DNA from: Candidatus Poribacteria bacterium
GTDB taxonomy: Bacteria > Poribacteria > WGA-4E > WGA-3G
Direction: 5' to 3'
NCBI GenBank assembly: GCA_963663765.2
Contig: CAXXUA010000002.1
Coordinates: 1-64,000, forward strand
Length of the DNA stretch: 64,000 nucleotides
Made by a program: the position numbers and the translations under genes. Each line of letters opens with the position of its first letter. Position 1 is the first letter of the stretch. The notes below the pieces were generated by a model. The model had not been told where the DNA came from. It searched no databases and worked only from the letters and a program-made list of their open reading frames with translations. Shown piece after piece: positions 1-29,038 of the stretch.

Positions 1-21
1 GAGGTACAAACTTTTGTTCTC

Positions 22-216
22 TTTAGTCCCGTAGTGACGATATGTTTATAGAAAGACGTTATCACCCCTCTCTTGAGTTCCGTAGGAACGACATAGAAGG
101 ATAAACATATCGTCCCTACCAAATCAACGCCAAATGCGCGTATGGCATTTGGCGGGACTAAAAAGGCGTGGGGATATGTATTTTTCTATAAACATTGCGT
201 CACTTCGGGACTGAAA
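22..216. repeat. Cluster of four REP-like palindromic units (GTCCCGTAGxGACGA type) forming a long imperfect inverted repeat
   Basis: tttagtcccgtagtgacgatatgtttatagaaa (22-54) is inverted against tttctataaacattgcgtcacttcgggactgaaa (183-216). Inner units are gttccgtaggaacgac and catatcgtccctac|gggactaaa. Confidence 0.75.
120..153. mobile_element. 34-bp hairpin insert interrupting a REP unit
   Basis: Removing caaatcaacgccaaatgcgcgtatggcatttggc restores cgtccctac-gggactaaa. The insert has a perfect 9-bp stem gccaaatgc/gcatttggc. Confidence 0.6.
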
Positions 217-231
217 AGTATAGCTGATATT

Positions 232-387
232 ATACCAATTCAAATAAATCTTGTCTCATGAAGGAATTCTACTGTTTACTGGCATGGGGTTACTCTCTTC
301 GGTAGGAGCGACCTCCCGGTCGCGACCAGGAGGTCGCTCCTACCAGATCTCTGCAGCTAATGAGACATAATACAATAGAAATGGTAT
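232..387. mobile_element. MITE-like element carrying a REP palindrome (301-344)
   Basis: Imperfect 28-bp terminal inverted repeats ataccaattc...gtctcat / atgagac...gaaatggtat. Internal palindrome ggtaggagcgacctcc...ggaggtcgctcctacc. Confidence 0.55.
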
Positions 388-620
388 TATATGTGATTTT
401 TAATGGATTTTGTAGTTTTTTGGGTGTTTGTTTATTGGGATTTCCAATAGATATCCAATAGATTTGGAGAAAGGTCGTGTCGTACGCGATTCAGAATTGT
501 GGTATGCGCGGATTTGTATGCGGAATTGCAGATTTCTCGGATTACGCGGAACAGAATTTATTTCAATTGGTATGATGTAAAATATTGTCCAAACTATGGT
601 AATTGAAGAATAGTGTATTT

Positions 621-1358
621 TTAGAGAGTGGTGTGTGTTAGCGGTTCCCAACCTAACAATCGTTTTGCTTTTGAGAGATTTATTTCCTTTTGCTCATGGT
701 CTCCAGCAATAAACACAGCGTCAAAACCTTTGTGTTCAACTGAAATAGCTGCGAGATAAGCGCGCGCTAAGTCTTCTTCGTCTGTCCACCAGATATGCAC
801 AGACGCATCCTTAGGTTGATTTCGTCGTTCTAACCATTGCTCTCTTGTTGATGGACCGGTGATACGTAACGCAATTAGGGACATGTCATGTTCTCGTGCA
901 AAGTATTCACATACTTGTTCTCCAAAACTTTTTGTCAAACCGTAAACGCCTGGATTATCTCTTGGTATGACGTCTTCATAAGGGAAGCTATTGCGTGTAC
1001 GTTCATGCACGGTGAAGGTGCTGGTGTAGACACCGTGCTTAATTCCTGCTTCTTTCGCAGCATGGAGAAGGATATGGAGTCCCTTTGCATTGACATCGTA
1101 GTTTGCAATTATGTCTGGGAAATCTGCGACTGATGAACGATCACTTGTTGGACGCAACATCACCATGTAGACAAACGTATCCATCCCTTTCAGTGCTTCT
1201 TGGACAATATCCACATCCGTGACAGAACCTTGGATATAATCAATGGATTCGTCTTTAGGTGGAGATAAATCAAGTACACGAAAATTATGATGTTCTTTCA
1301 TATAAGGGAGTGTCATGGTTCCAACATGACCGGATCCACCTACAAGTAACACGTTCAC
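621..1358 (-). CDS. NAD-dependent epimerase/dehydratase (extended SDR, uronate-dehydrogenase-like)
   Basis: N-terminal GGSGHVG Rossmann motif and YGLTK (YxxxK) catalytic motif; GTG start with GGAGGA RBS. Confidence 0.85.
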   Translation of the reverse strand: MNVLLVGGSGHVGTMTLPYMKEHHNFRVLDLSPPKDESIDYIQGSVTDVDIVQEALKGMDTFVYMVMLRPTSDRSSVADFPDIIANYDVNAKGLHILLHAAKEAGIKHGVYTSTFTVHERTRNSFPYEDVIPRDNPGVYGLTKSFGEQVCEYFAREHDMSLIALRITGPSTREQWLERRNQPKDASVHIWWTDEEDLARAYLAAISVEHKGFDAVFIAGDHEQKEINLSKAKRLLGWEPLTHTTL

Positions 1359-1369
1359 TGTATTTCCTC

Positions 1370-2460
1370 CAGGACTTACGCACTATAATAGATTTGTGCT
1401 ATACTATTCCATTATGATTACATTTACACTTTCCGAAAAGAAACAAAGTTTATATTCAGATTATTGTCAATTTTTGTTATCAAGTTTTACAAACTTTACA
1501 CAAACCTATATGGCAGACCATACTGATAAGTGGAGCCACGATCAAATCAATCGGTTTCTGAGCGGTGAAAACATCCCCGCGAATGAACTTTGGAACTCGG
1601 TCAAAAACGACATTGAGTTTGATGATGATGGCTACATTGTTTTTGACGATGTTGTGCTACCTAAACTCTATGCGAAAGAGATTGAGGTCCTCCGTTCTCA
1701 GTGGAGTGGTAGCGACAAAAAAGTCGTTAAAGGCATTGGTATTGTGACGTGTATCTATGTCAATCCAAAGACAGAAGAGTATTGGATTATTGATTACCGT
1801 ATTTATGACATAGATCATGATGGTAAAACCAAAATAGACCATTTACTGGAAATGTTGCACAACGCTTACTCTAAAAAACAGATACCGTTTCGGACGGTGC
1901 TAATGGATACTTGGTATGCCTCCATGCAAGTTATGAAAGCGATTGAAAAACTTTCTAAGATTTACTACGTGCCCCTGAAACGAAATCGTCTTGTAAACGA
2001 TACGGATGGCGAGCAACCGCACCAACAAGTCCAAGACCTATCTTGGACCCGGACAGAAATCCGGCAAGGGAAAAGCGTGCACATCAAGAAGTTTCCAAAA
2101 GGGTATCAAGTCAAGTTGTTCCGGATAGCCTCCTCTACCGGGCGCACGGAATATATTGTGACAAACGATTTATCTCAATCGGATGCGGATGCGGCACACC
2201 AAGAATGTCGTATACGTTGGAAGATTGAACAACTCCATCGTGAGATCAAACAAGTCACGGGTATTGGCAAATGTCAATGTCGCAAGTTGCGTGCCCAAAG
2301 AAATCATATTGCCTGTTGTTTTCAAATATGGGTCTGTTTGAAACGTGTTGCGCGTAAACTTGGCAAAACAATTTATGAACTTAAACAAAGTTTATTGGAT
2401 GATTATATGCGATATCAACTCTCAAATCCATCGATAATCTTTGAGACTGCGTAAGTCCTG
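1370..2460 (+). mobile_element. Complete IS701-family insertion sequence
   Basis: 13-bp perfect TIRs CAGGACTTACGCA/TGCGTAAGTCCTG; 5-bp direct repeat TCCTC at 1365-1369 and 2461-2465; single DDE transposase ORF. Confidence 0.9.
1414..2454 (+). CDS. IS701-family DDE transposase
   Basis: Motifs SHDQINRFL, IVFDD, VLMDTWY, RWKIEQLHREIKQ and QRNH. ATG 1414 is preferred over the TTG at 1396. Confidence 0.9.
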   Translation: MITFTLSEKKQSLYSDYCQFLLSSFTNFTQTYMADHTDKWSHDQINRFLSGENIPANELWNSVKNDIEFDDDGYIVFDDVVLPKLYAKEIEVLRSQWSGSDKKVVKGIGIVTCIYVNPKTEEYWIIDYRIYDIDHDGKTKIDHLLEMLHNAYSKKQIPFRTVLMDTWYASMQVMKAIEKLSKIYYVPLKRNRLVNDTDGEQPHQQVQDLSWTRTEIRQGKSVHIKKFPKGYQVKLFRIASSTGRTEYIVTNDLSQSDADAAHQECRIRWKIEQLHREIKQVTGIGKCQCRKLRAQRNHIACCFQIWVCLKRVARKLGKTIYELKQSLLDDYMRYQLSNPSIIFETA

Positions 2461-2542
2461 TCCTCAATTTATTTTCGTTTTTCATAACTATTCTGAATGT
2501 CTAAAAAATCGTAAGTTTAAATTATTGCTGTGATAGAGATGT

Positions 2543-4573
2543 TTAAGGTATATTTGAAAAATCCCATATCAATATCGTGCCGTCAGTCCTCCCGCTTACG
2601 AGCGTCTTTCCATCCGGACTGAAGGTTACGCTTGAGACACCACCCGTATGCCCCGTAAGGGTTTTGATGAGTTCACCAGTTTCACCATCCCAAACACGGA
2701 TTTCACCGCTCCAAGTTCCACTACTAAGACGCCCATTCCAATACCAATCTCCACTAACGATAAGGTTTCCATCAGGACTAAATATCACACTTGATACCAC
2801 ATCTTTATGTCCTGTAAGGGTTTTTATCAACTCACCGGTGTTGGCATTCCACAAGCGGATTTCCTCACCCGTACTCGCCACACCTTCATAGCCCCTCCAA
2901 TGTCCACTGCCGCTGGCGATAGTGTTTCCGTTTGGACTGAATACCACACTATTGACTACGGATGTATGACCTTTGAGAGTTTTGATGAGTTTACCGGTAT
3001 TGGCATTCCATAGGCGAATTTCTTGACCAACACACGTACCCGAATCCTCACCCCCTCCCAAATATACTAACCTCCCACTGCCACTGGCGATAGTATTTCC
3101 ATCCGGACTAAAGGCGACAGTGTTGACGTTCTCTATATGTCCTGTGAGTGTTTTTAGAAGTTCACCTGTGCTGGCATTCCATAAGCGGATAATTCTATCG
3201 TTACCCGCACTGGCGATTGTCTCACCGTCCGAGCTGAAAACTACACTGTTCACCGAACTCGCATGTGCCATCAGTGTTTTGACGGGTTTACGTGTTTTGA
3301 CATTCCATAAGCGGATAGTTCTGTCGTCACTTGCACTGGCGATTGTCTCTCCATCTGGACTAAAAACGATGCTGCTTACCAAATCCGTATGTCCTATCAG
3401 CGTTCTGAGGAGTTCGTTAGTATGGGAATCCCATAGATGGATGTTGTTCCCTCCACAACTAACAATCGTGCTTCCATCTGGACTGAAAGCGACACTTCTG
3501 ATTGAACCTATGTCTTTTCCTCTGAATTTATCTTCTGAACCTATGTTTCTCGTAAGACTTTCGAGGAATTGGAAAGTATGAGCATTCCGTATAAATATAC
3601 CCATTTCGCTTACAATCGCACATGTCCTTCCATCTGGACTGAAAACTGCGCTGACTGCATGAATTGGAATGTCTTCAATATATTCACCGGTGTTGACATC
3701 CCATAGGCCAACACCATCCTCTCCAGCACTTATGATCGTTTTTCCGTTTGGACTGAAAGCCACGCTTTTGACAGGCTTCGTATGTCCTTCAAGATATTTG
3801 ATGAATTCACCTGTGTGGGTATTCCATAGGCGGATGGTTCCATTACCACTGCCGCTAGCGATCATATTTCCATCCGGACTAAAAACGACACTGTTGACAT
3901 CGCGACCCTCAAAATCTTCAAAAGCCGTGCGTTTTTTGAGAGTTTTGTGGAGTTCGCCAGTCTGAACATCCCACACGCGGATGTTGCTGTTCCGTTCATC
4001 TCCACTACTAGCGAGAGTCTTCCCATCCGGACTGAAACATAAGCTCAAAGAAGTATACGGACCTCCAAATGATTTGAGCCATTTACCTGTTTGGCTATCC
4101 AATAATGTGATTCCTGGGCACATACCTTCCACACATGCACCACCACTTGCGATTATTTTACCATCTGGACTGAACGCTACACTACTGACCCACTCTTGTA
4201 CGGTTGGAAAACTTTGCATACGTTTGCCTGTTTTAACATCCCACACCAAGATGCCCCCACTGGCATAACCACTAACGATAGTACTTCCATCTGGACTGAA
4301 TGCCACACTACTGACAGGTCCTGTATGTCCCGTAAGGAGTGCCACCTCTTGATACGTTTCCATATCATAAATCCAAATACCAACACTTGCCGCCACTGCT
4401 AAATACTTGCCATTCGGTGAATATGCTATCTCGTTTATAATGCCATTCCCAAGACGTGCTATTGCTCCCTCTGGCAAACTCATACGTGTGGTGTCTGCAG
4501 CGAATGAATTGAATGGAAAGAATATTAAGGAAATATAGAACACTATGAATAAATGGATGATGGTTTTCTTCAC
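2543..4573 (-). CDS. Secreted WD40-repeat beta-propeller protein
   Basis: Many GH...FSPDG...W[DN] repeats, a signal-peptide-like N-terminus and an LPEGAIARLG leader. GTG start at 4573 chosen by RBS (GGAG) and alignment with the paralogue starting at 6840. Confidence 0.9.
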   Translation of the reverse strand: MKKTIIHLFIVFYISLIFFPFNSFAADTTRMSLPEGAIARLGNGIINEIAYSPNGKYLAVAASVGIWIYDMETYQEVALLTGHTGPVSSVAFSPDGSTIVSGYASGGILVWDVKTGKRMQSFPTVQEWVSSVAFSPDGKIIASGGACVEGMCPGITLLDSQTGKWLKSFGGPYTSLSLCFSPDGKTLASSGDERNSNIRVWDVQTGELHKTLKKRTAFEDFEGRDVNSVVFSPDGNMIASGSGNGTIRLWNTHTGEFIKYLEGHTKPVKSVAFSPNGKTIISAGEDGVGLWDVNTGEYIEDIPIHAVSAVFSPDGRTCAIVSEMGIFIRNAHTFQFLESLTRNIGSEDKFRGKDIGSIRSVAFSPDGSTIVSCGGNNIHLWDSHTNELLRTLIGHTDLVSSIVFSPDGETIASASDDRTIRLWNVKTRKPVKTLMAHASSVNSVVFSSDGETIASAGNDRIIRLWNASTGELLKTLTGHIENVNTVAFSPDGNTIASGSGRLVYLGGGEDSGTCVGQEIRLWNANTGKLIKTLKGHTSVVNSVVFSPNGNTIASGSGHWRGYEGVASTGEEIRLWNANTGELIKTLTGHKDVVSSVIFSPDGNLIVSGDWYWNGRLSSGTWSGEIRVWDGETGELIKTLTGHTGGVSSVTFSPDGKTLVSGRTDGTILIWDFSNIP

Positions 4574-4607
4574 AAGATTAAGTCTCCAATACAATATAAA
4601 ATGAGTG

Positions 4608-4670
4608 TTATCCTTTATAGGCGTAGTTACGGTGCTGGATTCGCAGGTCAAAGTTGTCATCTGGATCCCA
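4608..4670 (-). pseudogene. Fragment: last 20 codons plus stop of a PhyH gene (homologous to 6874-6936)
   Basis: Encodes the identical peptide WDPDDNFDLRIQHRNYAYKG* with 5 synonymous nucleotide differences. Confidence 0.9.
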
Positions 4671-4815
4671 CATCCGTAACAGAACCTTGAATGTATTCAA
4701 CGGAAGCGTCTTTAGGTGGAGATAAATCAAGCACACGAAAATTATGATTTTCTTTCATATACGGGAGTGTCATGGTTCCAACATGACCGGATCCGCCTAC
4801 AAGAAGCACGTTCAT
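4668..4815 (-). pseudogene. Fragment: first ~49 codons of the epimerase gene (homologous to 1211-1358)
   Basis: Gap-free alignment with 14 differences in 148 nt; reads MNVLLVGGSGHVGTMTLPYMKENHNF..., fused out of frame to the PhyH fragment, with a stop at 4657-4659. Confidence 0.9.
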
Positions 4816-4903
4816 CGCTTAGTCTCCTGTTTCGTCAATGTTGTGTGGTTTGTTGGAATGATTATCGCACTTTTAGCGACAATATCCACTGTGAGAGGGC
4901 AGG

Positions 4904-6840
4904 TTACCGTGGCAAGGAGAAATCCCATAGCAATATCGTGCCATCTGCTCCGCCACTGGCGATTGTGTTTCCATCTGGACTGAAAGTAACGCTTAAGACC
5001 CCACTTGTATGTCCAGTAAAGGTTTTTATGTTTTCTCCAGTTTGAATGTCCCAGAGATGGATTTCTCCACCATACCCCAGACTATGTACCTCGCCATGCA
5101 CAAGTATGTTTCCATCAGGACTGAGTACCATGCTCGCGACTCCAGTAAACATACGTTCTTTAAATGTTATGTGATCTGTAAGCGTTTTAATGAGGTTACC
5201 AGTGCTTGCATCCCACAAGTAGATTTTTTCAAACATAGATGCTTCCTCGCCTGCACTCCATCCACCAGCAATAATCGTGTTTCCATCTGGAGTATAGACA
5301 ACGCTATTTACTGAATGTATATATTCGGTAAGTGTTTTTTTGTGTTCACCAGTATGTGCATCCCATAGATGGACAACTTTGTCACAGTAAGTTTCATTAC
5401 CACTGGCTATAGTATTTCCATCTGGACTGAAAACTACACTTTTGACGTAACCAGAACTACTTGTAAGGGTACTTCTGTGTTCACCGGAATGAACATCCCA
5501 CAAACGTGTTTGCTTCCAACCGCCATTTGCAATTGTCTTCCCATCTGGATTAAAGGCCATGCTACTAACCGATCCATTGCCTACATTAAGGGTCTTACGG
5601 TGTACATAAGTATGGGCATCCCATAGACGTATGGTATCATCATTACTCCCTGTTGCAATTGTGTTTCCATCTGGACTATAGATCACACTTGTGACACTTT
5701 CGGTATGTCCAGTGAGAGTTTTCATGATTCTTCCTGTCTTAGTATCCCACAAGCGGACAGTATTATTGTGGTTTCCGCTGACAATAGTGTTTCCATCCTG
5801 ACTATAGACCACACTGCTAACCGAATCGGAAAAACCCTCAATCGTTTTCAAAAGTTCCTTCGTATGTGCATCCCACACACGGATACCATCCGAACTCCCA
5901 CTAACGAATGTCCTGCCATCAGGACTAAAAACCGCACTCACAGCAGAAATAGCAATAAATTTGATGGAATCAAGAGTGTTGGTATTCCATACATGCATGC
6001 CATCATCACCAGCACTTATGAGTGTCCTTCCATCTGCACTGAAAACCACACTTTTCACAGGTGCTGTATGTGCAGTAATTGTTTTGAGTAGTAAACCTGT
6101 GTGAGAACTCCAGAGTCGAACAGTTTTGTCATCACTAGCACTCGCAATTAAGTTACCATCTGAACTAAAAACTATACTGTTGATACTTTCAATCTCCTCA
6201 TAACCTGTAAGAGTTTTGATGAGTTCACAAGTGTTGACATTCCAGATAGCAATTCTCTTGTTGTATTTTTCCCCACTCACGAGGGTTTTTCCATCCGGAC
6301 TGAAAGATACGCTCAAAGGAGCTGACGGTCCGCCGAATTCTTTGAGAAGTTTACCAGTGTTGGCATTCCAAAAATTGATTGATGGAGCACTACCTTCTAT
6401 GGCTGCACCACCAATAGCGATTATGTTACCATCAGGAGTTAATGCCACACACTCGACCCAATCTAAACTTCCTGTTAGAGTCTTTTTGTGTGTACAAGTA
6501 TCGGTATCCCATAAATAGACTGCACCATTCTGACTACCACTAATAATGGTCTTGCCATTTGGACTGAAGTCAACACTTTTTATATGACCAGTAGGTCAGT
6601 TAGCAGTACCACCTCTTGATACGTTTCCATATCATAAATCCAAATACCAACACTTGCAGCCACTGCTAAATACTCGCCATTTGGTGAATATGCTATCTCG
6701 TTAATAATGCCTTTCCCAAGACGTGCTATTGCTCCCTCTGGTAAACTCATTCGTGTGGTGTCTGCAGCAAATGAGTTCAATGGAAAGGGCATTAAGAAAA
6801 GAAAAATCACTATGAATAAAAGGATGGTGGTTTTCTTCAT
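4904..6840 (-). pseudogene. WD40-repeat protein with a single frameshift near 6596
   Basis: ORF 6580-6855 (signal peptide plus LPEGAIARLGKG leader) continues after an apparent 1-nt deletion (ACT GA CCT ACT GGT CAT) in the frame of ORF 4904-6448. Could be a sequencing indel. Confidence 0.75.
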
Positions 6841-6873
6841 GAGATAAGCCTCCAATTCAACATAAATTGAGTG

Positions 6874-7743
6874 TTAACCTTTATAAGCGTAGTTGCGGTG
6901 TTGGATTCGCAAGTCAAAGTTGTCATCTGGATCCCACCTTGACATATCAGAAGGCACTTCATAAGTGAACTGCTCTGTATCTGATGGATATGGATTAGTA
7001 CTGCGTTCATGCAGCGCGCGCTGATACATTTTGCACCTTTGCGTCAAGAATTCGGTTTGCCACCATTTATAACGTGTGTTCCATCTCGGTGTACGTTGGT
7101 CGAAATAGATGACTCGGCGGAGTGTCCCACTTGTGTTGATCTTACTGCCGTGCAGGACTTTGGTATGATGCAGCAGAATATCGCCTGGCTCTACTTCTGC
7201 TGGCACAGCATCTGGACGGTCAAAATTCGCCACACCCTTTTCAATCTGTACCTGTGCTTCTTCAATTCCCCAAAGATGACTCTTCGGTATAACCCACACA
7301 CATCCATTGTCTACGGTGGAATTATCAATGTATATATCAACATTGAAGATTGGAAGATTTTCTCGGATTGCATTGCCGTCTCGATGCCATCTAACAGAGG
7401 AACCGTGTTTCGGTAACTTGAAAACAAGGGATTCATAGCACGGAATAAAATCGGGTCCTATGATTCTGTACAACAGGTCTCCAATGAAGGGATGTCCGAG
7501 AAGTCGCAACGAGAATTCATTCGGATGAGAATGCAAATAGGTGAGATAGTAGGGAATACCTTCGGGACCCCGCATACACCATTCATCTGCTGGACCGCCT
7601 GCTAAAATCTCATCAATGAGTCGTTGACTTTCGCCTTGTATGACAGCAAGTTCATCTGGTTGGATAACCTGTTTCAATATGAGGTATCCGTTTTCATTAA
7701 AGAACTGAATTTCGCTGTCAGTGATCTTTTGCATATTTGTCAC
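6874..7743 (-). CDS. Phytanoyl-CoA dioxygenase (PhyH) family Fe(II)/2-oxoglutarate dioxygenase
   Basis: FxENGYL start, WHRD (HxD), DNGC..PKSH, and LHGS..N.....RR motifs. Confidence 0.9.
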   Translation of the reverse strand: MTNMQKITDSEIQFFNENGYLILKQVIQPDELAVIQGESQRLIDEILAGGPADEWCMRGPEGIPYYLTYLHSHPNEFSLRLLGHPFIGDLLYRIIGPDFIPCYESLVFKLPKHGSSVRWHRDGNAIRENLPIFNVDIYIDNSTVDNGCVWVIPKSHLWGIEEAQVQIEKGVANFDRPDAVPAEVEPGDILLHHTKVLHGSKINTSGTLRRVIYFDQRTPRWNTRYKWWQTEFLTQRCKMYQRALHERSTNPYPSDTEQFTYEVPSDMSRWDPDDNFDLRIQHRNYAYKG

Positions 7744-7837
7744 CTTTCATATTAGAATCTACAAACTTAACATTGGTTATGTTCCAAATTTAATAGAAAT
7801 CGTAAGCAGTTTGGCATGCTGCTCACACCAACATTAA

Positions 7838-8593
7838 CTAATTCACTGATTTTATCTTTCCCCAAGTAGTTGTTAATTTGTCCTGTGCTCTTACAGCCAG
7901 TGTTTGTTTCATGTTTTGCTTTACTTCGTTTGCTGTGAGTGCAACACTCCACATTTTGACTTCATCAATGCTACCGTTAAAAAAGTTGCTACCACCCATA
8001 TTTGCACCGATAGACACACCCGCGGTTGCGAAATCCATCTTGATAGCACCACCTGATGCCGTTTCTGCATCTTTCTCGCCATCAATATATAATACTGCTG
8101 TATCCTGATCTTGTGTTACAACCATGTAATACCATTGCGGTTCAAACGCTGTGTATGTGCTTACGACTTGAAATTCCTGAGCTTGTGTTCCAAGATAGCA
8201 ACCATAAACTATTCCACTACGGTTGAACGTCAAATGCGGTCTACCGCCACCTTGTAGACGGTACATTATATCAATTCTACCGCCACCAGCAATCCTTTCT
8301 GTTGGTTTAAACCATAACTCAATCGTCATATCCTCTGGTACAGCCACTCCAAATGCAGGAACAGTAACAGCACCATTATTAAATTCAAGAGCTTGTCCGA
8401 CAACACCTTCAACCCACTCAGCATTTTCAATTGTTCCCTCAAACCCGTTTTCGGAAACATCCTCGGCTGTATTACCATTGCCTTCATCAAAAGGAAAATA
8501 AAATACATAATCATCAGCTGGATTTGCAGTTTTAACAATTGTTGCACATAACACAATAATTATTGTAGTGAATAGACATACTAATTTTTTCAC
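7838..8593 (-). CDS. Secreted LamG/concanavalin-A-like domain protein with Poribacteria-type C-terminal motif
   Basis: Signal peptide, YFPFDEGNG, LYIDG, FFNGSIDEVKMW, and C-terminal LAVRAQDKLTTTWGKIK. Confidence 0.85.
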   Translation of the reverse strand: MKKLVCLFTTIIIVLCATIVKTANPADDYVFYFPFDEGNGNTAEDVSENGFEGTIENAEWVEGVVGQALEFNNGAVTVPAFGVAVPEDMTIELWFKPTERIAGGGRIDIMYRLQGGGRPHLTFNRSGIVYGCYLGTQAQEFQVVSTYTAFEPQWYYMVVTQDQDTAVLYIDGEKDAETASGGAIKMDFATAGVSIGANMGGSNFFNGSIDEVKMWSVALTANEVKQNMKQTLAVRAQDKLTTTWGKIKSVN

Positions 8594-8629
8594 TGTTCAA
8601 AACCTCCAAAAAATAAATGGAATTGCTTT

Positions 8630-8658
8630 ATTCTATACAAATTAGGTTTTTGTGTCAA
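8630..8658 (-). promoter_or_regulatory. sigma-70-type promoter for the LamG gene
   Basis: TTGACA-N17-TAGAAT on the minus strand, 37 nt upstream of the start codon. Confidence 0.6.
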
Positions 8659-8856
8659 TATACAGTTCTGGGTAATTCAATTATCCGATACTTTTTCTTT
8701 TCTACCACACAATGATATATGAAAATGTGAATCTTGCTGTTTTTGCTATATGTCAAATGTTCCTTTTTGTGCAGCAAAAGACATGATTTGCACCTATTGG
8801 TGCAAGTCATTGTTGCTGTGTAAAGTTTTTGCACGAGGTTATCTGAATTGTTGGAA

Positions 8857-9010
8857 TTGTCAGAATCATGGAATACATAGATGACACAGATTACGTATAA
8901 AGCACGACTGAGGCGGTATTGCTTAGTAAAGTCTTATCTCATGAAATGCCATCTAATGCTGATGTCTTATCCGCGAAATCCGCGAAATCCGTGAAATCCG
9001 AGATTCTACC
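8857..9010. repeat. Degenerate short repeat element with 9-bp tandem units (atccgcgaa x3.5)
   Basis: Ends ttgtcagaatc...gagattct; internal atccgcgaaatccgcgaaatccgtgaaatccg. The end resembles that of 44240-44363. Confidence 0.4.
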
Positions 9011-9080
9011 TGCGAAAAACTTTACACACGCAGTCATTGTTGCTGTTCTCTGTATTACAAATATACTGTGTTTCTCAAAT

Positions 9081-9096
9081 TGGCACGCGAATTGCT
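9081..9096 (+). promoter_or_regulatory. sigma-54 (-24/-12) promoter
   Basis: TGGCACGCGAATTGCT matches TGGCAC-N5-TTGCW exactly, 47 nt upstream of the ATG at 9143. Confidence 0.75.
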
Positions 9097-9142
9097 TCCT
9101 ATTACAGACATAATACTCTCTTTTTCTTGGAGGTCAACCGTA

Positions 9143-11086
9143 ATGCGTATCATAAGAATTTCAGGATCGTTATTTCTTTCGATTGTTTTTCTCTCAGTTG
9201 TCGTGTTTCTCATCAATACCCAAATATCAAAGGAAAACATACAGACACATAATGAATTACTTGGCATATCCTTTTCTGAACCACCCGAGCCGAAACCGAA
9301 GTTACGTAAACCGATAGTAGGACATGTGAGCAATTCGTCAGATAAGGATGTACCTGTTGCTCCACTTCCAAAGAAGGTTACTAATACTAATCTTGCTGTA
9401 TCCAATAAACCTTCACCCATAGCATTTACAGGACCCGCAAAGCAGCAGAACGAAGTACCTGTTGATTTGACAAAATCAAAATCATTTGATTTACCAACTG
9501 CTTCTTCTACGAACATAACACAACCTAAAAAGCAGAATTTAAAAGTAAAGGTTCAGTATGATAGTGTGGTTCCTGCCGCACTTAAGCCAGTATCAGAATC
9601 TATTGCGCTCGGGAATGTTGAAGTGTCGAAACTTAGTCAAGGTATATCAATTACTGGAGAAATTTCTGCTAATAGTCCGCCAAACGGTGCAGATTTTGAC
9701 GATGTTTTCTACAAAAGCCATGGTACAAACCCATTCATTGATACAGAAGACGACAATTTCTCAACATTTGCAATGGATGTTGATACTGCATCTTACGCTG
9801 TGATGCGCCGATACTTACGGGATGGTGTTCTACCGCCTGCGGATGCAATTCGGGTAGAAGAATTTGTTAATACATTTGATTACAATTATAAACCTCCAAA
9901 CGAAGATGCGTTTGCTGTCCATATTGAAGGTGCACCCTCAATATTTGGTGAAGGTAAAAGGCTTCAATTGCTGCGAATAGGTATACAAGGTCGCGTCATT
10001 CCAGATACTGATCGCAAGGATGCAATCCTTACTTTTGTCGTGGATGTATCAGGTTCAATGGAACGTGAGAATCGGTTAGATTTGGTGAAAAAAGCGTTAT
10101 TCATCCTACTCAATCAGCTCCGTCCCGGCGATGAGGTAGGAATTGTCGTCTACGGTTCTAATGCACGTGTTGTGCTACCACATACTGGAATTGAGAATCG
10201 TGAATACATCTTTGAAGCGATTAGCAACCTTAGACCGGATGGGTCAACGAATGCTGAAGCTGGTCTTCGACTCGGTTATAAACTTTCCCTAAAAAATTCC
10301 AAGTCCGATTGCATCAACCGTGTAATTCTTTGCTCCGATGGTGTCGCTAATGTTGGAAAAACAGGTCCTGAGGCTATCCTCAAAAAAATTGGCGATTATG
10401 TTAAGGAAGGCGTAACACTTACAACCGTTGGATTCGGTATGGGTAACTACAACGATGTACTCATGGAACAACTTGCGAACAAAGGAAATGGTAGTTATGC
10501 CTATGTGGATTCACTCAAAGAAGCAAAACGTGTCTTTGTTGAGAACCTGACAGGCACACTGCAAGTTATTGCTAAAGATGCGAAAATTCAGGTTGAGTTT
10601 AACTCTGAAACAGTGAGTCGTTTTCGTCTACTCGGTTATGAGAATCGGTCGCTTGCACACGAAGATTTCCGTAAAGACGATGTTGACGCGGGAGAAGTCG
10701 GTTCAGGACATAGTGTAACCGCTTTATATGAGATAAAACTCCACGAAAACGCTGATGGCAAACTCGCTACTGTCTTTATACGACATGAGGACCCAGATAC
10801 ACAAAAGATCTCAGAAGTTAGAGAAACTATTGCTACAAATCAGTTGAAAAAGTCTTTTGCTGAAGCAACTACTGAGTATCAGTTTGTTTCTGCTGTCGCT
10901 GAATTTGCTGAAATCCTACGTGAAAGTTTCTGGGCAAAGGATGGTAGTTTAACAGAAGTTCAGAAAACAATTGAGGGTGTACTATCAGAACTTAACTCAG
11001 AAACACCTCAAGAAAAAGAACGAAAGGAAGAACTATTAAATCTTGTTCGACAAGTGCGCCGCTTGAAGGAACAGAAAGAAGGTTAG
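9143..11086 (+). CDS. Membrane-anchored YfbK-like vWA protein (vWF_A + vWA + DUF3520-like)
   Basis: N-terminal TM helix, Pro/Ser-rich linker, STFAMDVDTASY, MIDAS DVSGS, SDGVAN, TL..IAKD.KIQVEFN, RLLGYENR. ATG 9143 follows GGAGG. Confidence 0.85.
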   Translation: MRIIRISGSLFLSIVFLSVVVFLINTQISKENIQTHNELLGISFSEPPEPKPKLRKPIVGHVSNSSDKDVPVAPLPKKVTNTNLAVSNKPSPIAFTGPAKQQNEVPVDLTKSKSFDLPTASSTNITQPKKQNLKVKVQYDSVVPAALKPVSESIALGNVEVSKLSQGISITGEISANSPPNGADFDDVFYKSHGTNPFIDTEDDNFSTFAMDVDTASYAVMRRYLRDGVLPPADAIRVEEFVNTFDYNYKPPNEDAFAVHIEGAPSIFGEGKRLQLLRIGIQGRVIPDTDRKDAILTFVVDVSGSMERENRLDLVKKALFILLNQLRPGDEVGIVVYGSNARVVLPHTGIENREYIFEAISNLRPDGSTNAEAGLRLGYKLSLKNSKSDCINRVILCSDGVANVGKTGPEAILKKIGDYVKEGVTLTTVGFGMGNYNDVLMEQLANKGNGSYAYVDSLKEAKRVFVENLTGTLQVIAKDAKIQVEFNSETVSRFRLLGYENRSLAHEDFRKDDVDAGEVGSGHSVTALYEIKLHENADGKLATVFIRHEDPDTQKISEVRETIATNQLKKSFAEATTEYQFVSAVAEFAEILRESFWAKDGSLTEVQKTIEGVLSELNSETPQEKERKEELLNLVRQVRRLKEQKEG

Positions 11087-11107
11087 AATATTTGACAGGA
11101 TAATTTA

Positions 11108-11300
11108 TCGTAGATTTTGGAATTATTTACACACTTGAACAGGTAGGAGCGACCTCCAAATCAACGGTATGAATCATGGCGAATCATGTAGAATGCCATA
11201 CGCGTATTCTACCAAGCGCATTCATCCAATGACATTCCCTGGGTCGCGACCAGGAGGTCGCTCCTACAGAAGATGTGTATAATTATTTCAATATATCACC
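11108..11300. mobile_element. MITE-like wrapper containing the same REP palindrome as 301-344, interrupted by an ~82-bp insert (about 11157-11238)
   Basis: gtaggagcgacctc[caaatcaacg...]ctgggtcgcgaccaggaggtcgctcctac, with flanking imperfect IRs gaattatttacaca/tgtgtataattatttc. Confidence 0.55.
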
Positions 11301-11533
11301 ATATATAACATTTGTGTATAATCTGGAATGTGTTTCCTTTTTCTCAGAATTTAAACTTTTTCGCGAGTTAAACGTCTATGCAGATATGTAGAGTAAAATT
11401 ACATCTCTTTCATACCATGATGTAAATAGCATAAAAAACCCGATGCCTATGCTTGAACGACTCTACCTTTCACTTATTCCGTAAACCAATTCACAATAAA
11501 AAACAACCCAACACAAAAAAGAAGGGGAGAACA

Positions 11534-13837
11534 ATGAAACGATCAGACTTAAACACAATGGTACGGAGCCTATTTGTTCCCAGCATAGATGAATCTCGGA
11601 AATATGAAAAACTAATTGTCAAACGCTATCTCGCGAAGGTTGTTATTAGAAACCAGATTGCAACAACCGAAGTTGAGATTTTGCTCAGCAATCCGAATGA
11701 CGATGCATTTGAAGGAGATTATGTTTTTCCTTTACCAGACTCAGCTGATACTATAAACATTGAATTTCAAATTGATGGTAATCCAATAGAACCTGAGTTT
11801 CTTGGGAAAAATAGGTTAAAGAAATTCTATAACAACATCCTCAATACAGAGGAGAACCATGTTTTACATGAAATCGGAACGTCTGCATTGCGAATCGAGA
11901 TGCTAAAGATCGATGGTGGAGCAGAATGTAAGATAAATATTCGATACAATGAGTTTATTGAGGAAGTTGATGAAAACTTTGTTTACACACATCATTTAAG
12001 ATCGAATCAACCTGTTGGTCACCTTGAGTTGTCTCTAATAGTTGAGGAAATATACCCTATTGGGACAATAGAGTCTCCTTCACACGAAATAGAAGTTTGC
12101 AAAGAAAACGAATCTCGTGCAAGTCTGACTTATCAATCAAATGACATATTGTTAGACAAGGATTTCGTTTGCTCTTACACTTTAATTCCTGAAAATTTGG
12201 TAATTGAACAGCAACTGCATTTTGCACTACCAAAGCTTATTGCAGGTCTCTCTGAAACTATTTCTTCCAATGTAAGCTATGATGATGTATCTTTAGGCAA
12301 GTCTAAACTACAAGCAGAATCCGACGGAATCCAACAACCAACTCGGTTACAAAGAGGTGCACAAAGACTTGGTGAAGTTGAATTGTTAAGAAGAAAGAGT
12401 TCATTGAGTTTTGGACTAAATACAATAAACGAGGCAGCATATCACGATGTTTTCTTCAAAGGACACGGTGTCAATCCTTTTATTGATACGGAAGACGATA
12501 ACCTATCTACTTTTGGAATGGATGCCGATACTGCATCCTACTCAGTGACACGTCGCTATCTCAACGATGGTCATCTGCCACCACCAGAAGCAGTGCGTGT
12601 TGAAGAATTTGTCAATACTTTTGAATACGGTTATGTCCCTCCAAAAGACGATGCATTTGCAGTCCATCTTGAGGGGGCACCATCAAAATTTGGTACTGGT
12701 AAGCGATTGCAATTACTTCGTATCGGTATTCAAGGACATGTCATTCCAGACACTGACCGTAAAGATGCTGTGCTTACATTTGTCATTGATGTTTCAGGTT
12801 CAATGAGAATTGAAAATCGGTTGGGGCATGTGAAGAAAGCATTGCGACTTTTGGTTGACCAACTACGTCCTACTGATAAGATCGGTATTGTGGTCTACGG
12901 CACAAATGCACGTGTTATCCTACCCCATACCAGTAACGTGAATCGTCAACATATTTTGGAAAAAATAGACTCGCTATGTCCTGAAGGTGTGACGAATCTG
13001 GAAGAAGGATTTCAAATTGGGTACGAACTTGCTCAGAAGAATTCCCAACAGGATTGTATCAATCGAGTAATTCTCTGCTCAGATGGTGTAGCAAACTCTG
13101 GTCAAACTGCTTCTGAATCGCTCCTGAAAGAAATTAGTGATTATGTAGATGAGGGTATTTACCTTACCACAGTCGGCTTTGGTATGGGAAATTATAACGA
13201 TCAACTGATGGAAGAACTCGCAAAAAAAGGCAACGGAAATTACGCCTATGTTGATACCCTAAAGGAAGCGAAACGTATCTTTGTTGAAAACCTAACTGGA
13301 ACTCTACAGGTGATTGCTAAAGATGCCAAGATTCAGGTTAAATTCAACGAAGACACTGTCAGTCGTTTCAGACTATTAGGCTATGAAAATCGCAGGATGG
13401 ATCACGAGGATTTCCGAAATGACGATGCAGATGCTGGGGAAATCGGTTCTGGACACAGTGTCACTGCACTTTACGAAGTAAAACTCCACAAAGGTGTTGA
13501 CAAAGGTAGACTCGGTACTGTATACATTCGACATGAAGATCCCGATTCAGCAAAAGTTACTGAGGTTAAGCAGAAACTTCGCGTTGAGGAACTCAAAGAG
13601 AAATTTGAGGATTCCTCCCCAAGTTTTCAGTTATCTGCTGCAGTCGCTCAATTCGCTGAGATCTTACGTGAAAGTTATTGGGCGAAGGATGGCAGTTTAG
13701 CGGATGTTCAACGTACAATAAAAGAACTCCTACCTAAATTGGATTCTGATTCCCCGCAATCCGAGGAACAGACGAAGGAACTGTTTAGCCTTGTGCGAAA
13801 AGCTCGTAAACTCAAGGACAATAACGAAGATAAGTAA
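11534..13837 (+). CDS. Chimeric VIT-domain + YfbK-like vWA protein
   Basis: N-terminus aligns with the VIT region of 13938-16121 (NQ.ATT, EG.Y.FPL, SPSHEI, DF.C.Y.L); the C-terminal ~470 aa closely match 9143-11086. ATG 11534 follows AAGGGGAG; no signal peptide. Confidence 0.85.
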   Translation: MKRSDLNTMVRSLFVPSIDESRKYEKLIVKRYLAKVVIRNQIATTEVEILLSNPNDDAFEGDYVFPLPDSADTINIEFQIDGNPIEPEFLGKNRLKKFYNNILNTEENHVLHEIGTSALRIEMLKIDGGAECKINIRYNEFIEEVDENFVYTHHLRSNQPVGHLELSLIVEEIYPIGTIESPSHEIEVCKENESRASLTYQSNDILLDKDFVCSYTLIPENLVIEQQLHFALPKLIAGLSETISSNVSYDDVSLGKSKLQAESDGIQQPTRLQRGAQRLGEVELLRRKSSLSFGLNTINEAAYHDVFFKGHGVNPFIDTEDDNLSTFGMDADTASYSVTRRYLNDGHLPPPEAVRVEEFVNTFEYGYVPPKDDAFAVHLEGAPSKFGTGKRLQLLRIGIQGHVIPDTDRKDAVLTFVIDVSGSMRIENRLGHVKKALRLLVDQLRPTDKIGIVVYGTNARVILPHTSNVNRQHILEKIDSLCPEGVTNLEEGFQIGYELAQKNSQQDCINRVILCSDGVANSGQTASESLLKEISDYVDEGIYLTTVGFGMGNYNDQLMEELAKKGNGNYAYVDTLKEAKRIFVENLTGTLQVIAKDAKIQVKFNEDTVSRFRLLGYENRRMDHEDFRNDDADAGEIGSGHSVTALYEVKLHKGVDKGRLGTVYIRHEDPDSAKVTEVKQKLRVEELKEKFEDSSPSFQLSAAVAQFAEILRESYWAKDGSLADVQRTIKELLPKLDSDSPQSEEQTKELFSLVRKARKLKDNNEDK

Positions 13838-13858
13838 AAGTAATTATGATAAGGATAC

Positions 13859-13892
13859 TTGTAAGGTGCATTTAATAATCTGCACCTTACAA
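13859..13892. terminator. Intergenic hairpin (terminator or REP-like)
   Basis: ttgtaaggtgca-N10-tgcaccttacaa, a perfect 12-bp stem; no clear U-tract. Confidence 0.4.
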
Positions 13893-13937
13893 ACATTCTA
13901 TTGTAATACCTACTTTCACATTTAAACGGAGGTTGCC

Positions 13938-16121
13938 ATGAAAAGATTGTATTTCCACTCAGCCATGTTAATCCTGTTGCTAACAGGATTTGCACAAATC
14001 GTTCAAGCACAAGGGATTATAGTCACACACCGACCCAGTACTCCAAGAATACAAAACTTAATCATAGAAAAACACCATGTTGATGTGACAATTGACAACC
14101 AACTTGCTACAACGAAAATTGACCAGATCTTCGCAAACCCGAACAACAGACAATTGGAAGGTACATATCTTTTCCCACTTCAAGATGATGTAGCGATTTC
14201 TGATTTTGTGTTGTATATTGATGGAAAACCAGTCAAAGCGGAACTACTCCCTAAAGACAAGGCAAAAAGTATCTATGAAGGTATCGTCCGTTCAATGCAA
14301 GACCCCGCACTGTTGGAATATGTTGGTAAACGCGCTTTTCAAGCAAGGGTGTTTCCAATACCACCTAACGGAGAAAGGCGAATCCAGCTTGAATATTCAC
14401 AAGTGATTAAAGTAGATGCTAATTTGGCAAAGTACACATATCCACTTCGAACCGAAAAGTTTACGCGTCAACCCGTAGGAAGTCTCTCAGTTAACATTGA
14501 CCTAAAAAGCAAACATGAACTAAAAACTATCTATTCACCATCACATGAGATCGCTGTCAATAGAAAAGACGATCATCAAGCAAACATCAGTTACGAGGGT
14601 GAAAATGTCCGTGTAAAACGTGATTTCCTCTGCTACTATTCGCTCTCCGATAAAGACTTCGGTATTGACTTGATAACACACAGAGATGATGTGGATGAAG
14701 ATGGTTACTTTATGCTGCTGATTTCACCGAAGTATGAAGTAGATAAGAAAGATATTGTTGAAAAGGATTTTATCTTCGTCCTTGATCGGTCTGGAAGTAT
14801 GAAGGGTGATAAAATAGAACAAGCGAAAGAAGCACTCCGATTTTGTGTGAACAATCTAAACGATGGTGACCGATTCAATCTCATCCTCTTTAATACGGAT
14901 GTAGAACCGTTCTCAGATACGTTAGTTTCCGTAAAGCAGGAACGCAAAAACGCGCTTGCTTTTGTTGATGAAATTGAAGGGAACGGCGGTACAAACATCA
15001 ATAGTGCATTACTTACAGCATTAGATGAAGAACCTGATCCAAAAAGACCACGTATTGTCGTTTTCCTAACTGATGGAGAAGCAACTGTAGGAACAACCGA
15101 TCCAACCCGTATCCTTAAGAATGTAGCAAATGCAAATAAAGAACAATCTCGGGTTTTTGTTTTCGGTGTCGGCTATAAAGTCAACGTAAATCTTCTTGAT
15201 AAAATGGCAGAACAAAACGGTGGCACCCGGCAATATGTCAGACCAAACGAAGACTTAGAAGTTGCTGTATCTTCTTTCTTTACAAAAGTAAGTGAACCTG
15301 TACTGGTTAATTTAGCATTAGATATTCAGGACATCAAAACAAAGAACCTTTATCCACAGAAACTCCCCCACCTATTTCGCGGTTCTCAGGTAACTGTTCT
15401 TGGTAGATATGTCAGTAATGGAAAATCCAAGCTAATACTACGTGGTGACATCAACGGAAAACAGCAAGAATTCTCCAACACTGCACAATTTCCCAGACAG
15501 GAATCAGATCATCAATTCCTACCGAGACTATGGGCACAACGTAAGGTCGCATATCTTGTTGATGAGGTCAGACTAAACGGGGAAAACAAGGAACTGATAG
15601 ACGAAATCGTCCGTCTCAGTGAAAAATATGGTATTATGACACCATACACCTCATTCCTTGTCACAGAAGAACAAGATGCACAGAACATAATTGCCGGCCG
15701 TGGAAGACCAGAATTAAGTCGAAGAGCGCGTGTTACAACTTCTCCAAGAGCATTAAATGCACCAAAATCAGCAACACAACCTGCTGATAAAGCAGCAGAA
15801 CTAAAAGCTGAACAAGCAGTCAGGACAAGCGAGAGTTTGCAAAAAATGCAGACTGACGCAAAATTGCAAGATTCAGCTACTGTTATTAAGCAGGTCAAGA
15901 GTAAAACCTTTCATCTCATTAATAAAGTCTGGGTAGATAGCACACACAATGATGAAACAAAGACAACCAAGATAGAATTTGGAAGTGAGAAATACTTTGA
16001 ATTGCTCAAAAAAGAACCTGATTTAGCAAAATACTTGGCAATTGGAAAACACGTTATCGTGTGTTACAAAGGTACGTGTTATGAAATTCATCCGCCAGAA
16101 GAAAAGAAAGAAAAGGACTAA
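13938..16121 (+). CDS. Secreted VIT + vWA domain protein (inter-alpha-trypsin-inhibitor-like)
   Basis: Signal peptide, VIT region, MIDAS DRSGS, GGTNI, FLTDG, RLWAQRK and KYGIMTPYTS. Confidence 0.88.
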   Translation: MKRLYFHSAMLILLLTGFAQIVQAQGIIVTHRPSTPRIQNLIIEKHHVDVTIDNQLATTKIDQIFANPNNRQLEGTYLFPLQDDVAISDFVLYIDGKPVKAELLPKDKAKSIYEGIVRSMQDPALLEYVGKRAFQARVFPIPPNGERRIQLEYSQVIKVDANLAKYTYPLRTEKFTRQPVGSLSVNIDLKSKHELKTIYSPSHEIAVNRKDDHQANISYEGENVRVKRDFLCYYSLSDKDFGIDLITHRDDVDEDGYFMLLISPKYEVDKKDIVEKDFIFVLDRSGSMKGDKIEQAKEALRFCVNNLNDGDRFNLILFNTDVEPFSDTLVSVKQERKNALAFVDEIEGNGGTNINSALLTALDEEPDPKRPRIVVFLTDGEATVGTTDPTRILKNVANANKEQSRVFVFGVGYKVNVNLLDKMAEQNGGTRQYVRPNEDLEVAVSSFFTKVSEPVLVNLALDIQDIKTKNLYPQKLPHLFRGSQVTVLGRYVSNGKSKLILRGDINGKQQEFSNTAQFPRQESDHQFLPRLWAQRKVAYLVDEVRLNGENKELIDEIVRLSEKYGIMTPYTSFLVTEEQDAQNIIAGRGRPELSRRARVTTSPRALNAPKSATQPADKAAELKAEQAVRTSESLQKMQTDAKLQDSATVIKQVKSKTFHLINKVWVDSTHNDETKTTKIEFGSEKYFELLKKEPDLAKYLAIGKHVIVCYKGTCYEIHPPEEKKEKD

Positions 16122-16138
16122 TTCAAAAGTCTATCGTT

Positions 16139-16798
16139 TTATTCCCGTTTAATCGTATAGATATTTATTGGGGTTGTTTTCTGGTTTGCTGTAATATTGA
16201 ATGTGGTTTTTTCAAAAACAAATCCATTTTCATTCAGACTATTGAAAAAACCACATGCATTATTTCTATTTGGTTCTGAAAAGAGTACCACACCGTTTTG
16301 TGCAAGTAAAGTCTGAAGTAATTCTATTATCGGTTTCCAATTCTGTTCTTCATATATGACATCAGAGGCGAGGATCACATCGAATTTACATTGAAAGCAT
16401 GCTGCGTTCCAATCCATCTGAACAATAGACCCTGTATCAACACCGTTTTGTTGTGCATTGTATCTGGCAAACAGTAACGCATCATGCTCAAAGTCTGTAA
16501 ACACAACATTTGCACCTGATTGTGAGGCGACAATCCCTGTTAACCCAAAACCGCAACCAATCTCAAGGACATATTTACCTGATAGGTAGTTGTCCAACTT
16601 TGCTATGTGTTGTGCTAAACTGATCGCTGATCCCCATAGATATACCCAATAGGGGAGATAGAGTACATCATCAGAATCTTCTCTACTCAGTTTGTCCAAG
16701 AATTGATCGGGATCCTCTAATATCGTGAGTTGAATCTCTCTATTTTCAACTGAAATTGTAATGTTTCTGATAGGGTAATCTGGAAGTCGGTTGTTCAT
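16139..16798 (-). CDS. SAM-dependent methyltransferase (Methyltransf_16 / protein-lysine MTase-like)
   Basis: PYW..LW.SA, VLEIGCGFG, DW and FDVILASDVIYE motifs; start uncertain (16798 or 16834). Confidence 0.8.
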   Translation of the reverse strand: MNNRLPDYPIRNITISVENREIQLTILEDPDQFLDKLSREDSDDVLYLPYWVYLWGSAISLAQHIAKLDNYLSGKYVLEIGCGFGLTGIVASQSGANVVFTDFEHDALLFARYNAQQNGVDTGSIVQMDWNAACFQCKFDVILASDVIYEEQNWKPIIELLQTLLAQNGVVLFSEPNRNNACGFFNSLNENGFVFEKTTFNITANQKTTPINIYTIKRE

Positions 16799-16853
16799 CC
16801 TCTTTATGATAACTGAATATTCAATACTGGTCAATAACTATGACACATCCGCA

Positions 16854-21178: not shown

Positions 21179-21185
21179 GAGGTAA

Positions 21186-23318: not shown

Positions 23319-23355
23319 TACGTCCTATTGTAAATCTAAAAGGGAGACATAAGGG

Positions 23356-25524: not shown

Positions 25525-25645
25525 AAGGAATATTACACGTTCAATCTCATTCTCACCAGATATAAAACGGTTAGCACGTACAACCCCAGGCAATCTCCGT
25601 TCAGATGTGATTAGGTTCTACTAGATCTCAATTGACAAATTACAA

Positions 25646-26741
25646 ATGCAAATTAACGCTTTACTTCAAACTAAAACATTAGGAGTTCTGGTCTATAAGG
25701 CGCATAAAGAACTTGTGAGATCAACACATTTTTCTCCAGATGGGAAAACAATAGCAACAATAAGTAACAGCGAAATTGTTTTGTGGGATGCAATAAAAGG
25801 GAAACACAAAACTATTTTGAAGGAACCACCGACACAGTTCTATTCATTTGCTTTCTCACCTGACAACAGGACAATTGCAACCGGTGATGGATGGAATAAC
25901 AATCAAGTCCGTTTGTGGGATACTCATACCGGTAAACTAAAGTCAGCACTTAAAGGACATAACGCTTGGATAGATTCCCTTGCCTACTCTCCTGATGGAA
26001 TGTTATTGGTGAGCGGCAGCAGGGACGGCATGATACGCGTATGGAACCCAAAAACTGGGGAACATAGGATGACTCTGGAGGGTCATACAAAGAAAATTTA
26101 TAGAATTGTTTTTTCTCCAAATGGAAAATTGTTTGCCAGTGCAAGTCAAGATAACACGTTGATTTTGTGGGATATGTTGTCAACAATACAAGAAGGGAAA
26201 CCTCAAACAATATTTAAAGTAAATACTACAAGTACCTACCACCTAAAGTTTTCTCTGAATAATAAAACACTCGTGAGTGGAGGTGGTGATAAAACAATAC
26301 GTCTGTGGGACACAAAAACTGGTCAAAGCAAGACTGCACTTCAAGGGCATACATCTTATATTGACTTCCTTGATTTTTCACCAGATGGACAAACATTGAT
26401 CAGCGGCAGTAGAGATTTCACTGTTCGATTATGGGATGAAAACAGGTACAATTCGCACTATCCTTGATAAGAATAGAGAACCATGGTCACAGATTCTGAT
26501 TTCACCCCATGGAAGAACATTAGTTACTCATGAAGACAGCGTAGCTTTCCATGTATGGAATCTGAAAACAGGTACACTCCGTTTTAGCATAAAAGCAAAA
26601 TATGTTGAATTTGATACCTTTGCGTTTATACACGGAGGATCAACACTCATCAGTATGGATTGGAATGATACTTTGCATGTATGGGATGCAGAGACAGGTG
26701 AATTCCAGATGAAAATCAAAACGCAGCACAAAATCAGATAA
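25646..26741 (+). pseudogene. 5'-truncated, frameshifted WD40 gene homologous to the C-terminal half of 29039-31291
   Basis: No signal peptide or leader. Shares GWNNN and ISPHGRTL motifs with 29039-31291. Apparent 1-nt deletion near 26438; degenerate WD40 remnants at 25530-25600. Confidence 0.8.
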
Positions 26742-26805
26742 AGATTTTGTAGGTGCGTAAGCCAGAAACCGGTCCGATGATTGACCAGCTGCTGCCAATG
26801 ACATA
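26734..26805 (-). pseudogene. Fragment: last 23 codons plus stop of the DUF6785-like gene (homologous to 31284-31355)
   Basis: YVIGSSWSIIGPVSGLRTYKIFI* vs YVIGSSWAIIGPVSGLRTYKIFI*; 4 synonymous changes and 1 conservative change. Confidence 0.9.
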
Positions 26806-29014: not shown

Positions 29015-29038
29015 CAGTGTTTGAGGAGATGAACATAG

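Follow-up and report, generated by a model that had tools for sequence, protein, structure and literature searches.

Homology-facilitated illegitimate recombination (HFIR) is known from natural transformation in Acinetobacter, Streptococcus pneumoniae and Pseudomonas stutzeri, and in its classical form it usually replaces recipient DNA. The passage on this process in one published account (PMC6382021, where Meier and Wackernagel, 2003 is cited) summarises HFIR with segments of 3–10 bp. Tandem duplication join points form a second class, in which head-to-tail units meet where the 5' part of the downstream gene is fused to the 3' part of the upstream gene at a few shared bases. A third class is represented by hypervariable loci such as those for capsule and O-antigen, where alleles are switched between conserved flanking genes. 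In Poribacteria, WD40 domains are highly abundant and many genes carry a phyH domain (PMC3909097); the account of these families given there concerns gene content and does not extend to locus-level cassette variation or join-point scars.

The locus described here resembles each of these systems in part. With HFIR it would share the integration of diverged DNA through one illegitimate joint, formed where a few bases match, and without a site-specific recombinase. It differs from HFIR in that the incoming DNA would be a diverged allele of the same locus and not unrelated DNA, and in that the product is a tandem stack duplicating 147 nt of the anchor gene and no replacement, which counts against the classical form. 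The head-to-tail units, the fused gene ends and the few shared bases are those of tandem duplication join points; unlike these, the units appear to have been dissimilar at birth, with WD40 cores from old separate clades, and the scar has an orthologue-like substitution pattern. Conserved flanks and several deep cassette types that are discordant with the flank phylogeny are shared with hypervariable loci, whereas here the new allele would have been added beside the old one via an illegitimate joint and not by a double homologous crossover. The case is a natural example, at one locus, of a known process whose mechanism class is known.

Layout of the Locus

The genome examined comprises 6.35 Mb in 15 contigs with no N and 41% G+C, and its completeness is estimated at 97.8%. 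The window, i.e., the whole stretch of DNA that was analysed, covers the initial 64 kb of contig C2, which starts only 620 nt past the epimerase gene. Part of this stretch is held by a run labelled as sponge metagenome, and close homologues of the epimerase are labelled Candidatus Poribacteria by their sources. The minus strand reads, in order, LamG-domain gene, PhyH, WDa, scar, WDb, IS element (on the plus strand) and epimerase (Table 1), so that gene families and coordinates reproduce the order PhyH-WD40a-scar-WD40b-IS-epimerase of the original prediction.

Table 1. Features of the PhyH–epimerase locus, with positions in the window.
Feature	Position	Strand	Remarks
LamG-domain gene	8593-7838	minus	
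PhyH-family dioxygenase, intact, 289 aa	7743-6874	minus	PF05721, E 6.5e-28
WD40 "a" (WDa), pseudogene	6840-4904	minus	frames read; clade a
88-nt spacer 3' of WDa	4816-4903	minus	includes epimerase ribosome-binding region
Whole scar	4815-4608	minus	epimerase 5' part fused to PhyH 3' part
Scar piece 1, first 147 nt of epimerase	4669-4815	minus	ancestral ATG kept
Joint, 4-nt microhomology	4668-4671		CCAC (plus) / GTGG (minus)
Scar piece 2, last 63 nt of PhyH	4608-4670	minus	stop codon included
Upstream spacer, PhyH stop to WDb start	4574-4607	minus	carried with the scar
WD40 "b" (WDb), intact, 676 aa	4573-2543	minus	from GTG at 4573; WD40 Pfam hits
IS element, 1091 bp	1370-2460	plus	DDE_Tnp_1; transposase ORF 1396-2454
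NAD-dependent epimerase/dehydratase-family gene, intact, 245 aa	1358-621	minus	GTG start; PF01370, E 5.6e-13

Orthologues of the PhyH protein in the genus are 85–93% identical in amino acids. The spacer downstream of WDa falls in the length class of the 85–90-nt spacers of relatives, and the one upstream of WDb can be aligned to the spacer at 6841-6873 as well as to the 32–36-nt spacers of relatives; WDb is the cassette that arrived together with the PhyH piece of the scar. The N-terminus of WDb is signal-peptide-like, its start having been set by alignment to relatives. Since the epimerase starts with ATG in 28 of 28 relatives, the GTG of the intact gene is derived, and this gene also has a derived residue of its own, D40.

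An integron-like or recombinase-driven cassette array was considered and rejected: among the 14 translated ORFs scanned in 3-16834 no recombinase family was matched save the DDE transposase of the IS, and the cassette borders are ordinary spacers that lack repeated attachment sites. A promoter/terminator scan returned fewer sites than shuffled sequence (14 vs. 22.2; 1 vs. 5.9). Three successive large VWA/VIT-domain genes with YfbK_C (9068-16121) adjoin the locus.

The Scar and Its Joint

Both pieces of the scar align without indels to the intact genes nearby, positions 4814-4668 to the epimerase at 1357-1211 (91.2% over 147 nt, E 6e-54) and positions 4671-4608 to PhyH at 6937-6874 (92.2% over 64 nt, E 6e-20), and the 6.35 Mb genome holds no further copies of either gene. 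The epimerase piece has 14 nucleotide differences from 1358-1212, which change 12 codons: an ATG/GTG swap at the start, seven synonymous codons and four non-synonymous ones (scar/intact N/H23, A/E37, V/I39, and E/D40). In the PhyH piece all five differences from 6936-6874 are synonymous. GTGG on the minus strand represents the sole letters common to both parents at the joint, where the PhyH frame is +1 relative to that of the epimerase. This confirms to the base the predicted out-of-frame fusion at CCAC, and the predicted substitution counts proved exact throughout. With 4 bp, the joint lies inside the 3–10 bp range summarised for HFIR in the relevant passage of PMC6382021. An out-of-frame ORF of 52 aa (4815-4657, piece 1 plus 9 nt) runs through the fusion and has no Pfam hit.

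Substitution Pattern of the Scar

Scar and intact genes were compared over 68 codons by Nei-Gojobori counting, which gave 12.5 synonymous and 5.5 non-synonymous differences (pS 0.278, pN 0.035, pN/pS 0.125). Over the same codons, 13 working orthologues show pN/pS values of 0.034–0.102 against the intact genes and of 0.057–0.109 against the scar. The pS of 0.28 between scar and intact genes is about half of that to the nearest sampled species (0.56–0.62). Under a model in which the scar has been dead since the split, 37–44% of the changes are expected to be synonymous; for the 18 substitutions available, the probability of at least 14 synonymous ones (shortest-path count) is 5e-4 to 4e-3 and that of at least 13 is 2.6e-3 to 1.5e-2, the full range (5e-4 to 1.5e-2) reflecting the choice of counting rule and of transition bias. 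The dead-scar model is rejected; the numbers are small, yet they point clearly one way.

Several scar variants would be natural alleles of working genes elsewhere, judging by where they recur. At five of five sites the PhyH piece has the state of G045, which is the sister species in the tree of flanking genes; between nt 110 and 138 the epimerase piece agrees with G016 at all seven differing sites, including A37 and V39; and the residues A37, V39 and E40 are also found in two working homologues, P0027 and P0029 ("KDASVEY"). Position 23 varies (H, Q, L) among the top 31 of 540 protein hits. Polarising the third-position changes by outgroups meets largely saturated sites. That gene conversion lowered the number of non-synonymous changes was ruled out on logical grounds, as conversion removes differences at all codon positions alike. 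The analysis supports the view that both pieces of the scar derive from genes which probably still worked, in a lineage of their own, not long before the joint was formed; the earlier claim that the fragments had recently been in functional genes was borne out by the pN/pS of 0.125, the rejection of the dead-scar model and the variants in working alleles.

Two WD40 Types at One Site

The two units of the locus, 6937-4668 and 4671-1211 (the latter minus the IS), are colinear. Identity between them is 92% in the PhyH piece, 82–85% in the spacer and signal peptide, 93–95% in the next 120 nt, 40–70% in the WD40 core and downstream spacer and 91–95% in the epimerase piece. Divergence is similar along the whole left arm, with 89–95% identity for the WD40 N-terminus, which was counted as suggesting the joining of two haplotypes.

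Only 48% of the residues are identical between WDa and WDb. Each has closer counterparts at the same site in other species: WDb is 70–78% identical in amino acids, over its full length, to the WD40 genes of G055, G050, G005, G044, G008, and G020, and WDa is 60–63% identical to those of four other species. Maximum-likelihood analysis of 16 WD40 proteins encoded at the PhyH-epimerase site resolves three clades, a, b and c, each with support of at least 100/99; WDa falls in a and WDb in b (both 100/99), and each of these two clades also holds cassettes of other species. A tree constrained to unite WDa and WDb is worse by 267 lnL units (p-AU 1.2e-7). Since their sister placement is rejected, the two genes are no recent duplicates that grew apart at this site. 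WDb clusters with the cassettes of G005 and of the distant G055 and apart from that of the flank sister G045; holding it with the latter is rejected at p-AU 3e-4 in a test framed after the tree was seen.

The Locus Across the Genus

PhyH and epimerase genes occur on one fetched locus in 29 genomes, this one counted. Between them lie no WD40 cassette in 15 genomes, one in 11 and two in three, and the cassette-free gaps of the 15 measure 7–154 nt. The two-cassette orders are b-a in G005, c-b in G055 and a-scar-b in the present genome. Fragments of flanking genes were found in the gap of none of the 13 other genomes that have a WD40 gene there; the 126-nt spacer between the cassettes of G005 consists of a downstream spacer followed by an upstream spacer. 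Cassette type is discordant with the tree of flanking genes, in which five sister pairs differ, two of them in type (G053/G050 and G020/G003 carry a vs. b) and three in presence/absence.

Most of these states, as well as N-termini that go by species and cores that go by type, could be accounted for by an ancestral c-b-a tandem from which different cassettes were lost. The order a-b is unobtainable from it; nor can this order be reached from b-a (G005) or c-b (G055) by loss alone, which argues for a separate event.

In loci L040 (G055) and L020 (G005) the two WD40 copies are 75–98% identical over the first ~200 nt and 40–65% beyond, a pattern that points to recombination or conversion acting on the signal-peptide end only.

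The donor haplotype was found in none of 39 other genomes of the genus, 18 metagenome loci and 31 inspected proteins. The best matches in those 39 genomes reach at most 86% for the epimerase piece and at most 88% for the PhyH piece; in the 18 JGI metagenome loci identity peaks at 79.6% for the scar and at 82.7% for the intact epimerase. Among the top 31 of 540 hits in the protein database N23 is absent and "KDASVEY" occurs in two. Nor was an un-stacked haplotype found in the genomes and metagenome loci searched. Scar and intact genes are each other's closest match, as would also be expected from an in situ duplication; over the epimerase piece the margin is small, with 90.5% to the scar vs. 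89.1% to G053.

Origin of the Stacked Locus

The preferred reading, to which a probability of roughly 0.65 is assigned, is that two PhyH-WD40-epimerase haplotypes from related lineages were combined through one illegitimate joint at a microhomology together with homologous exchange. An a-haplotype and a b-haplotype would have come from related lineages, set apart at synonymous sites by about half the distance to the nearest species sampled. One illegitimate joint would then have connected the epimerase of the a-haplotype, at its nt 148, with the final 63 nt of PhyH from the b-haplotype, and homologous exchange elsewhere in the shared flank would have completed the event, giving PhyH - WDa - [epimerase 5' :: PhyH 3'] - WDb - epimerase. 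Afterwards, an active IS would have landed upstream of the epimerase and WDa would have lost its reading frame. Possible routes include an HFIR-like integration, a Campbell-type insertion of a circularised fragment and a template switch onto a foreign copy.

The import of one haplotype and the molecular route by which it came are both inferred. ComEC and DprA homologues are present and Ku was not found (genome estimated 97.8% complete), but ComEC and DprA also occur in 10 of 14 control genomes; these genes are weak evidence at best, since carrying them does not amount to competence. The original prediction had proposed that a divergent version of the locus from a related lineage was added. The cassette clades, the pN/pS and the shared variants point to a separate lineage, whereas the donor that this implies was not found in the genomes, metagenome loci and proteins searched.

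The strongest alternative, albeit an unlikely one, is that two complete tandem units, produced by an older insertion or duplication of the whole unit, were later reduced by a deletion at the GTGG microhomology, which would have removed the 3' part of the epimerase and the 5' part of PhyH. Microhomology deletions of a few bases are common. Such a history would account just as well for the gene-like substitutions in the two pieces of the scar, and the nearest sampled species (pS 0.56–0.62 vs. 0.28) could not show a younger duplication. On the other hand, a second copy or fragment of PhyH or epimerase occurs at the locus in none of 28 relatives that have both genes on one locus, none of which carries two complete tandem units, the case that had been named in advance as speaking against the proposed import. 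The two WD40 genes, moreover, are old separate types, so that import or rebuilding of the second unit would be needed all the same, and at least two events plus a long retention of redundant genes would be required.

A tandem duplication in situ between sister chromosomes, followed by divergence, is less probable still. Either a single WD40 gene would have been duplicated or a b-a ancestor, with the loss of one cassette per unit. The join has the architecture of a classical tandem duplication with a short microhomology, the scar pieces are closest to the genes of this very genome, and the order b-a is carried by G005, which belongs to the same flank clade. Against this stand the rejected clade of WDa plus WDb (p-AU 1.2e-7) and their 48% amino acid identity vs. 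60–78% to the cassettes of other species. Dead pieces predict ~60% non-synonymous changes and 22–31% are observed, scar variants recur in working alleles of other species, and three events would be required if a b-a ancestor was duplicated. Tree and substitution pattern thus both speak against a duplication in situ.

The joint was also followed in reads, examined as Logan contigs. X2 and X3 are runs from two studies; one of the two runs may be the source sample, but their contigs are independent of the assembler used for the genome. Contigs of 432 nt in X2 and in X3 span 4361-4792 with 0 differences, so that 4668, for which spanning long reads had been called for, is bridged here by short-read contigs of two runs. 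Contig depth is even over epimerase, WDb, joint, WDa, and PhyH (17.7–23.5 in X2 and 154–182 in X3). That the joint is an assembly error is very unlikely. A chimera of two co-occurring strains can be dismissed as barely credible: several congeners live in one host and an ~86%-identical second epimerase variant occurs in the same runs, but contigs of X2 and X3 cross the joint without differences at uniform depth, the genome has 15 contigs and no N, and a 4-nt overlap would be far under the overlap length of any assembler.

The second epimerase variant, seen over 1025-1370 in X2, X3, and X6 from the same host samples, has a depth near that of this genome in X2 and X3 and about twice it in X6. Such depths point to a co-resident congener, a possible kind of DNA donor.

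Another host's run, X7, contains a strain that is 98.3% identical to the window over PhyH plus WDa and 95.4% over the epimerase. This step in identity was counted for the two-haplotype reading as a hint only. The sequence 3' of WDa in other strains is shown by neither X6 nor X7 (the X7 contig ends at 4955), and the cover of X7 over 4334-4614, next to nil at a likeness of at least 86%, was not used as evidence.

Later Events: Frameshift and IS Insertion

WDa has suffered a deletion of 1 nt (GG to G at 6596/6597) that puts its signal peptide and first 82 codons out of frame with the remaining 563 codons. The extra G is present in the X7 strain, while the contigs of X2 and X3 agree with the window. 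The IS has terminal inverted repeats (CAGGACTTACGCA) and is flanked by a 5-bp target duplication, TCCTC (1365-1369 and 2461-2465), 11 nt upstream of the start of the epimerase; its insertion came after the stacking. Nine more full-length or near-full-length copies occur in the genome, seven of which are 99.4–100% identical. From the intact base in X7 and the near-identical IS copies it follows that frameshift and insertion are both recent. With the frame of WDa lost, the locus looks to be passing from allele a to allele b.

Collection or Replacement of WD40 Variants

The genome encodes 204 WD40-like ORFs (6.3% of its bases), 13 of which lie in the window, and has 32 PhyH matches. It had been suggested that foreign WD40 variants are collected at a fixed address. 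This idea gains no more than partial support, as WDa is frameshifted, scars are present in none of 13 relatives with a WD40 gene at the site and no enrichment was seen. For the latter, a genome-wide scan reduced 2817 short direct repeats to 534 unique pairs outside WD40, 300 of them at most 8 kb apart. Pairs enclosing a whole WD40 ORF numbered 9 of 300 vs. 9.07 expected from 200 random placements, so that the proposed enrichment of scars next to WD40 genes did not appear in this crude scan (word size 14, pairs inside WD40 dropped), which missed the 64-nt PhyH piece itself. Allele replacement by add-then-decay fits better than accumulation.

A broader reading, tentative and on balance doubtful, takes the PhyH-epimerase boundary as a genus-wide hotspot where secreted WD40 propellers of at least three old types (a, b, and c) are exchanged among symbiont species of one sponge host by add-then-decay, the scar being perhaps one intermediate caught in the act. 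Counted for it were the genomes with zero, one and two cassettes (15/11/3), the five discordant sister pairs and the grouping of WDb.

Some further repeats were noted. The genome-wide scan gave 93 candidate pairs with just one of the two copies inside a long ORF; many of these pairs are gene-end fragments that recur 2–3 kb away at 88–98% identity. Examples in G000 are C13:720573-725894, C4:252379-255692, C4:261487-264657 and C5:533864-536699, which may be other join-point scars; none encloses a whole WD40 ORF. Within the window, eight WD40-like ORFs are arranged head-to-tail on the plus strand at 17046-31291. At 50452-51433 a 32-nt unit (AGGCGTGCTTTGTAAGCGCGCCCCCCAACTGC) is repeated in tandem almost perfectly, with 30.7 copies, 98% matches and no spacers, and the array is open in three overlapping minus-strand ORFs. 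A sequence of 60–70 nt occurs three times (37845-37905, 43860-43931, and 50301-50379; 83–96% identity), one copy being directly upstream of the WD40 gene at 35705-37807.

Concluding Remarks

Join-point scars with an orthologue-like substitution pattern are rare direct evidence that a diverged allele of a cell's own locus was taken in via an illegitimate joint; had the allele been replaced smoothly by homologous recombination, no trace of this kind would be left. The preferred reading makes a testable prediction, namely the existence of two un-stacked haplotypes, which should be findable in long-read sponge metagenomes. The locus offers a concrete and datable example of the turnover of host-facing WD40 proteins in a sponge symbiont, with the addition of a new allele, a frameshift in the old one and the arrival of an IS. 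If the PhyH-epimerase boundary were indeed a hotspot throughout the genus, host-facing eukaryote-like proteins would be turned over there by adding and decaying alleles without any integrase.
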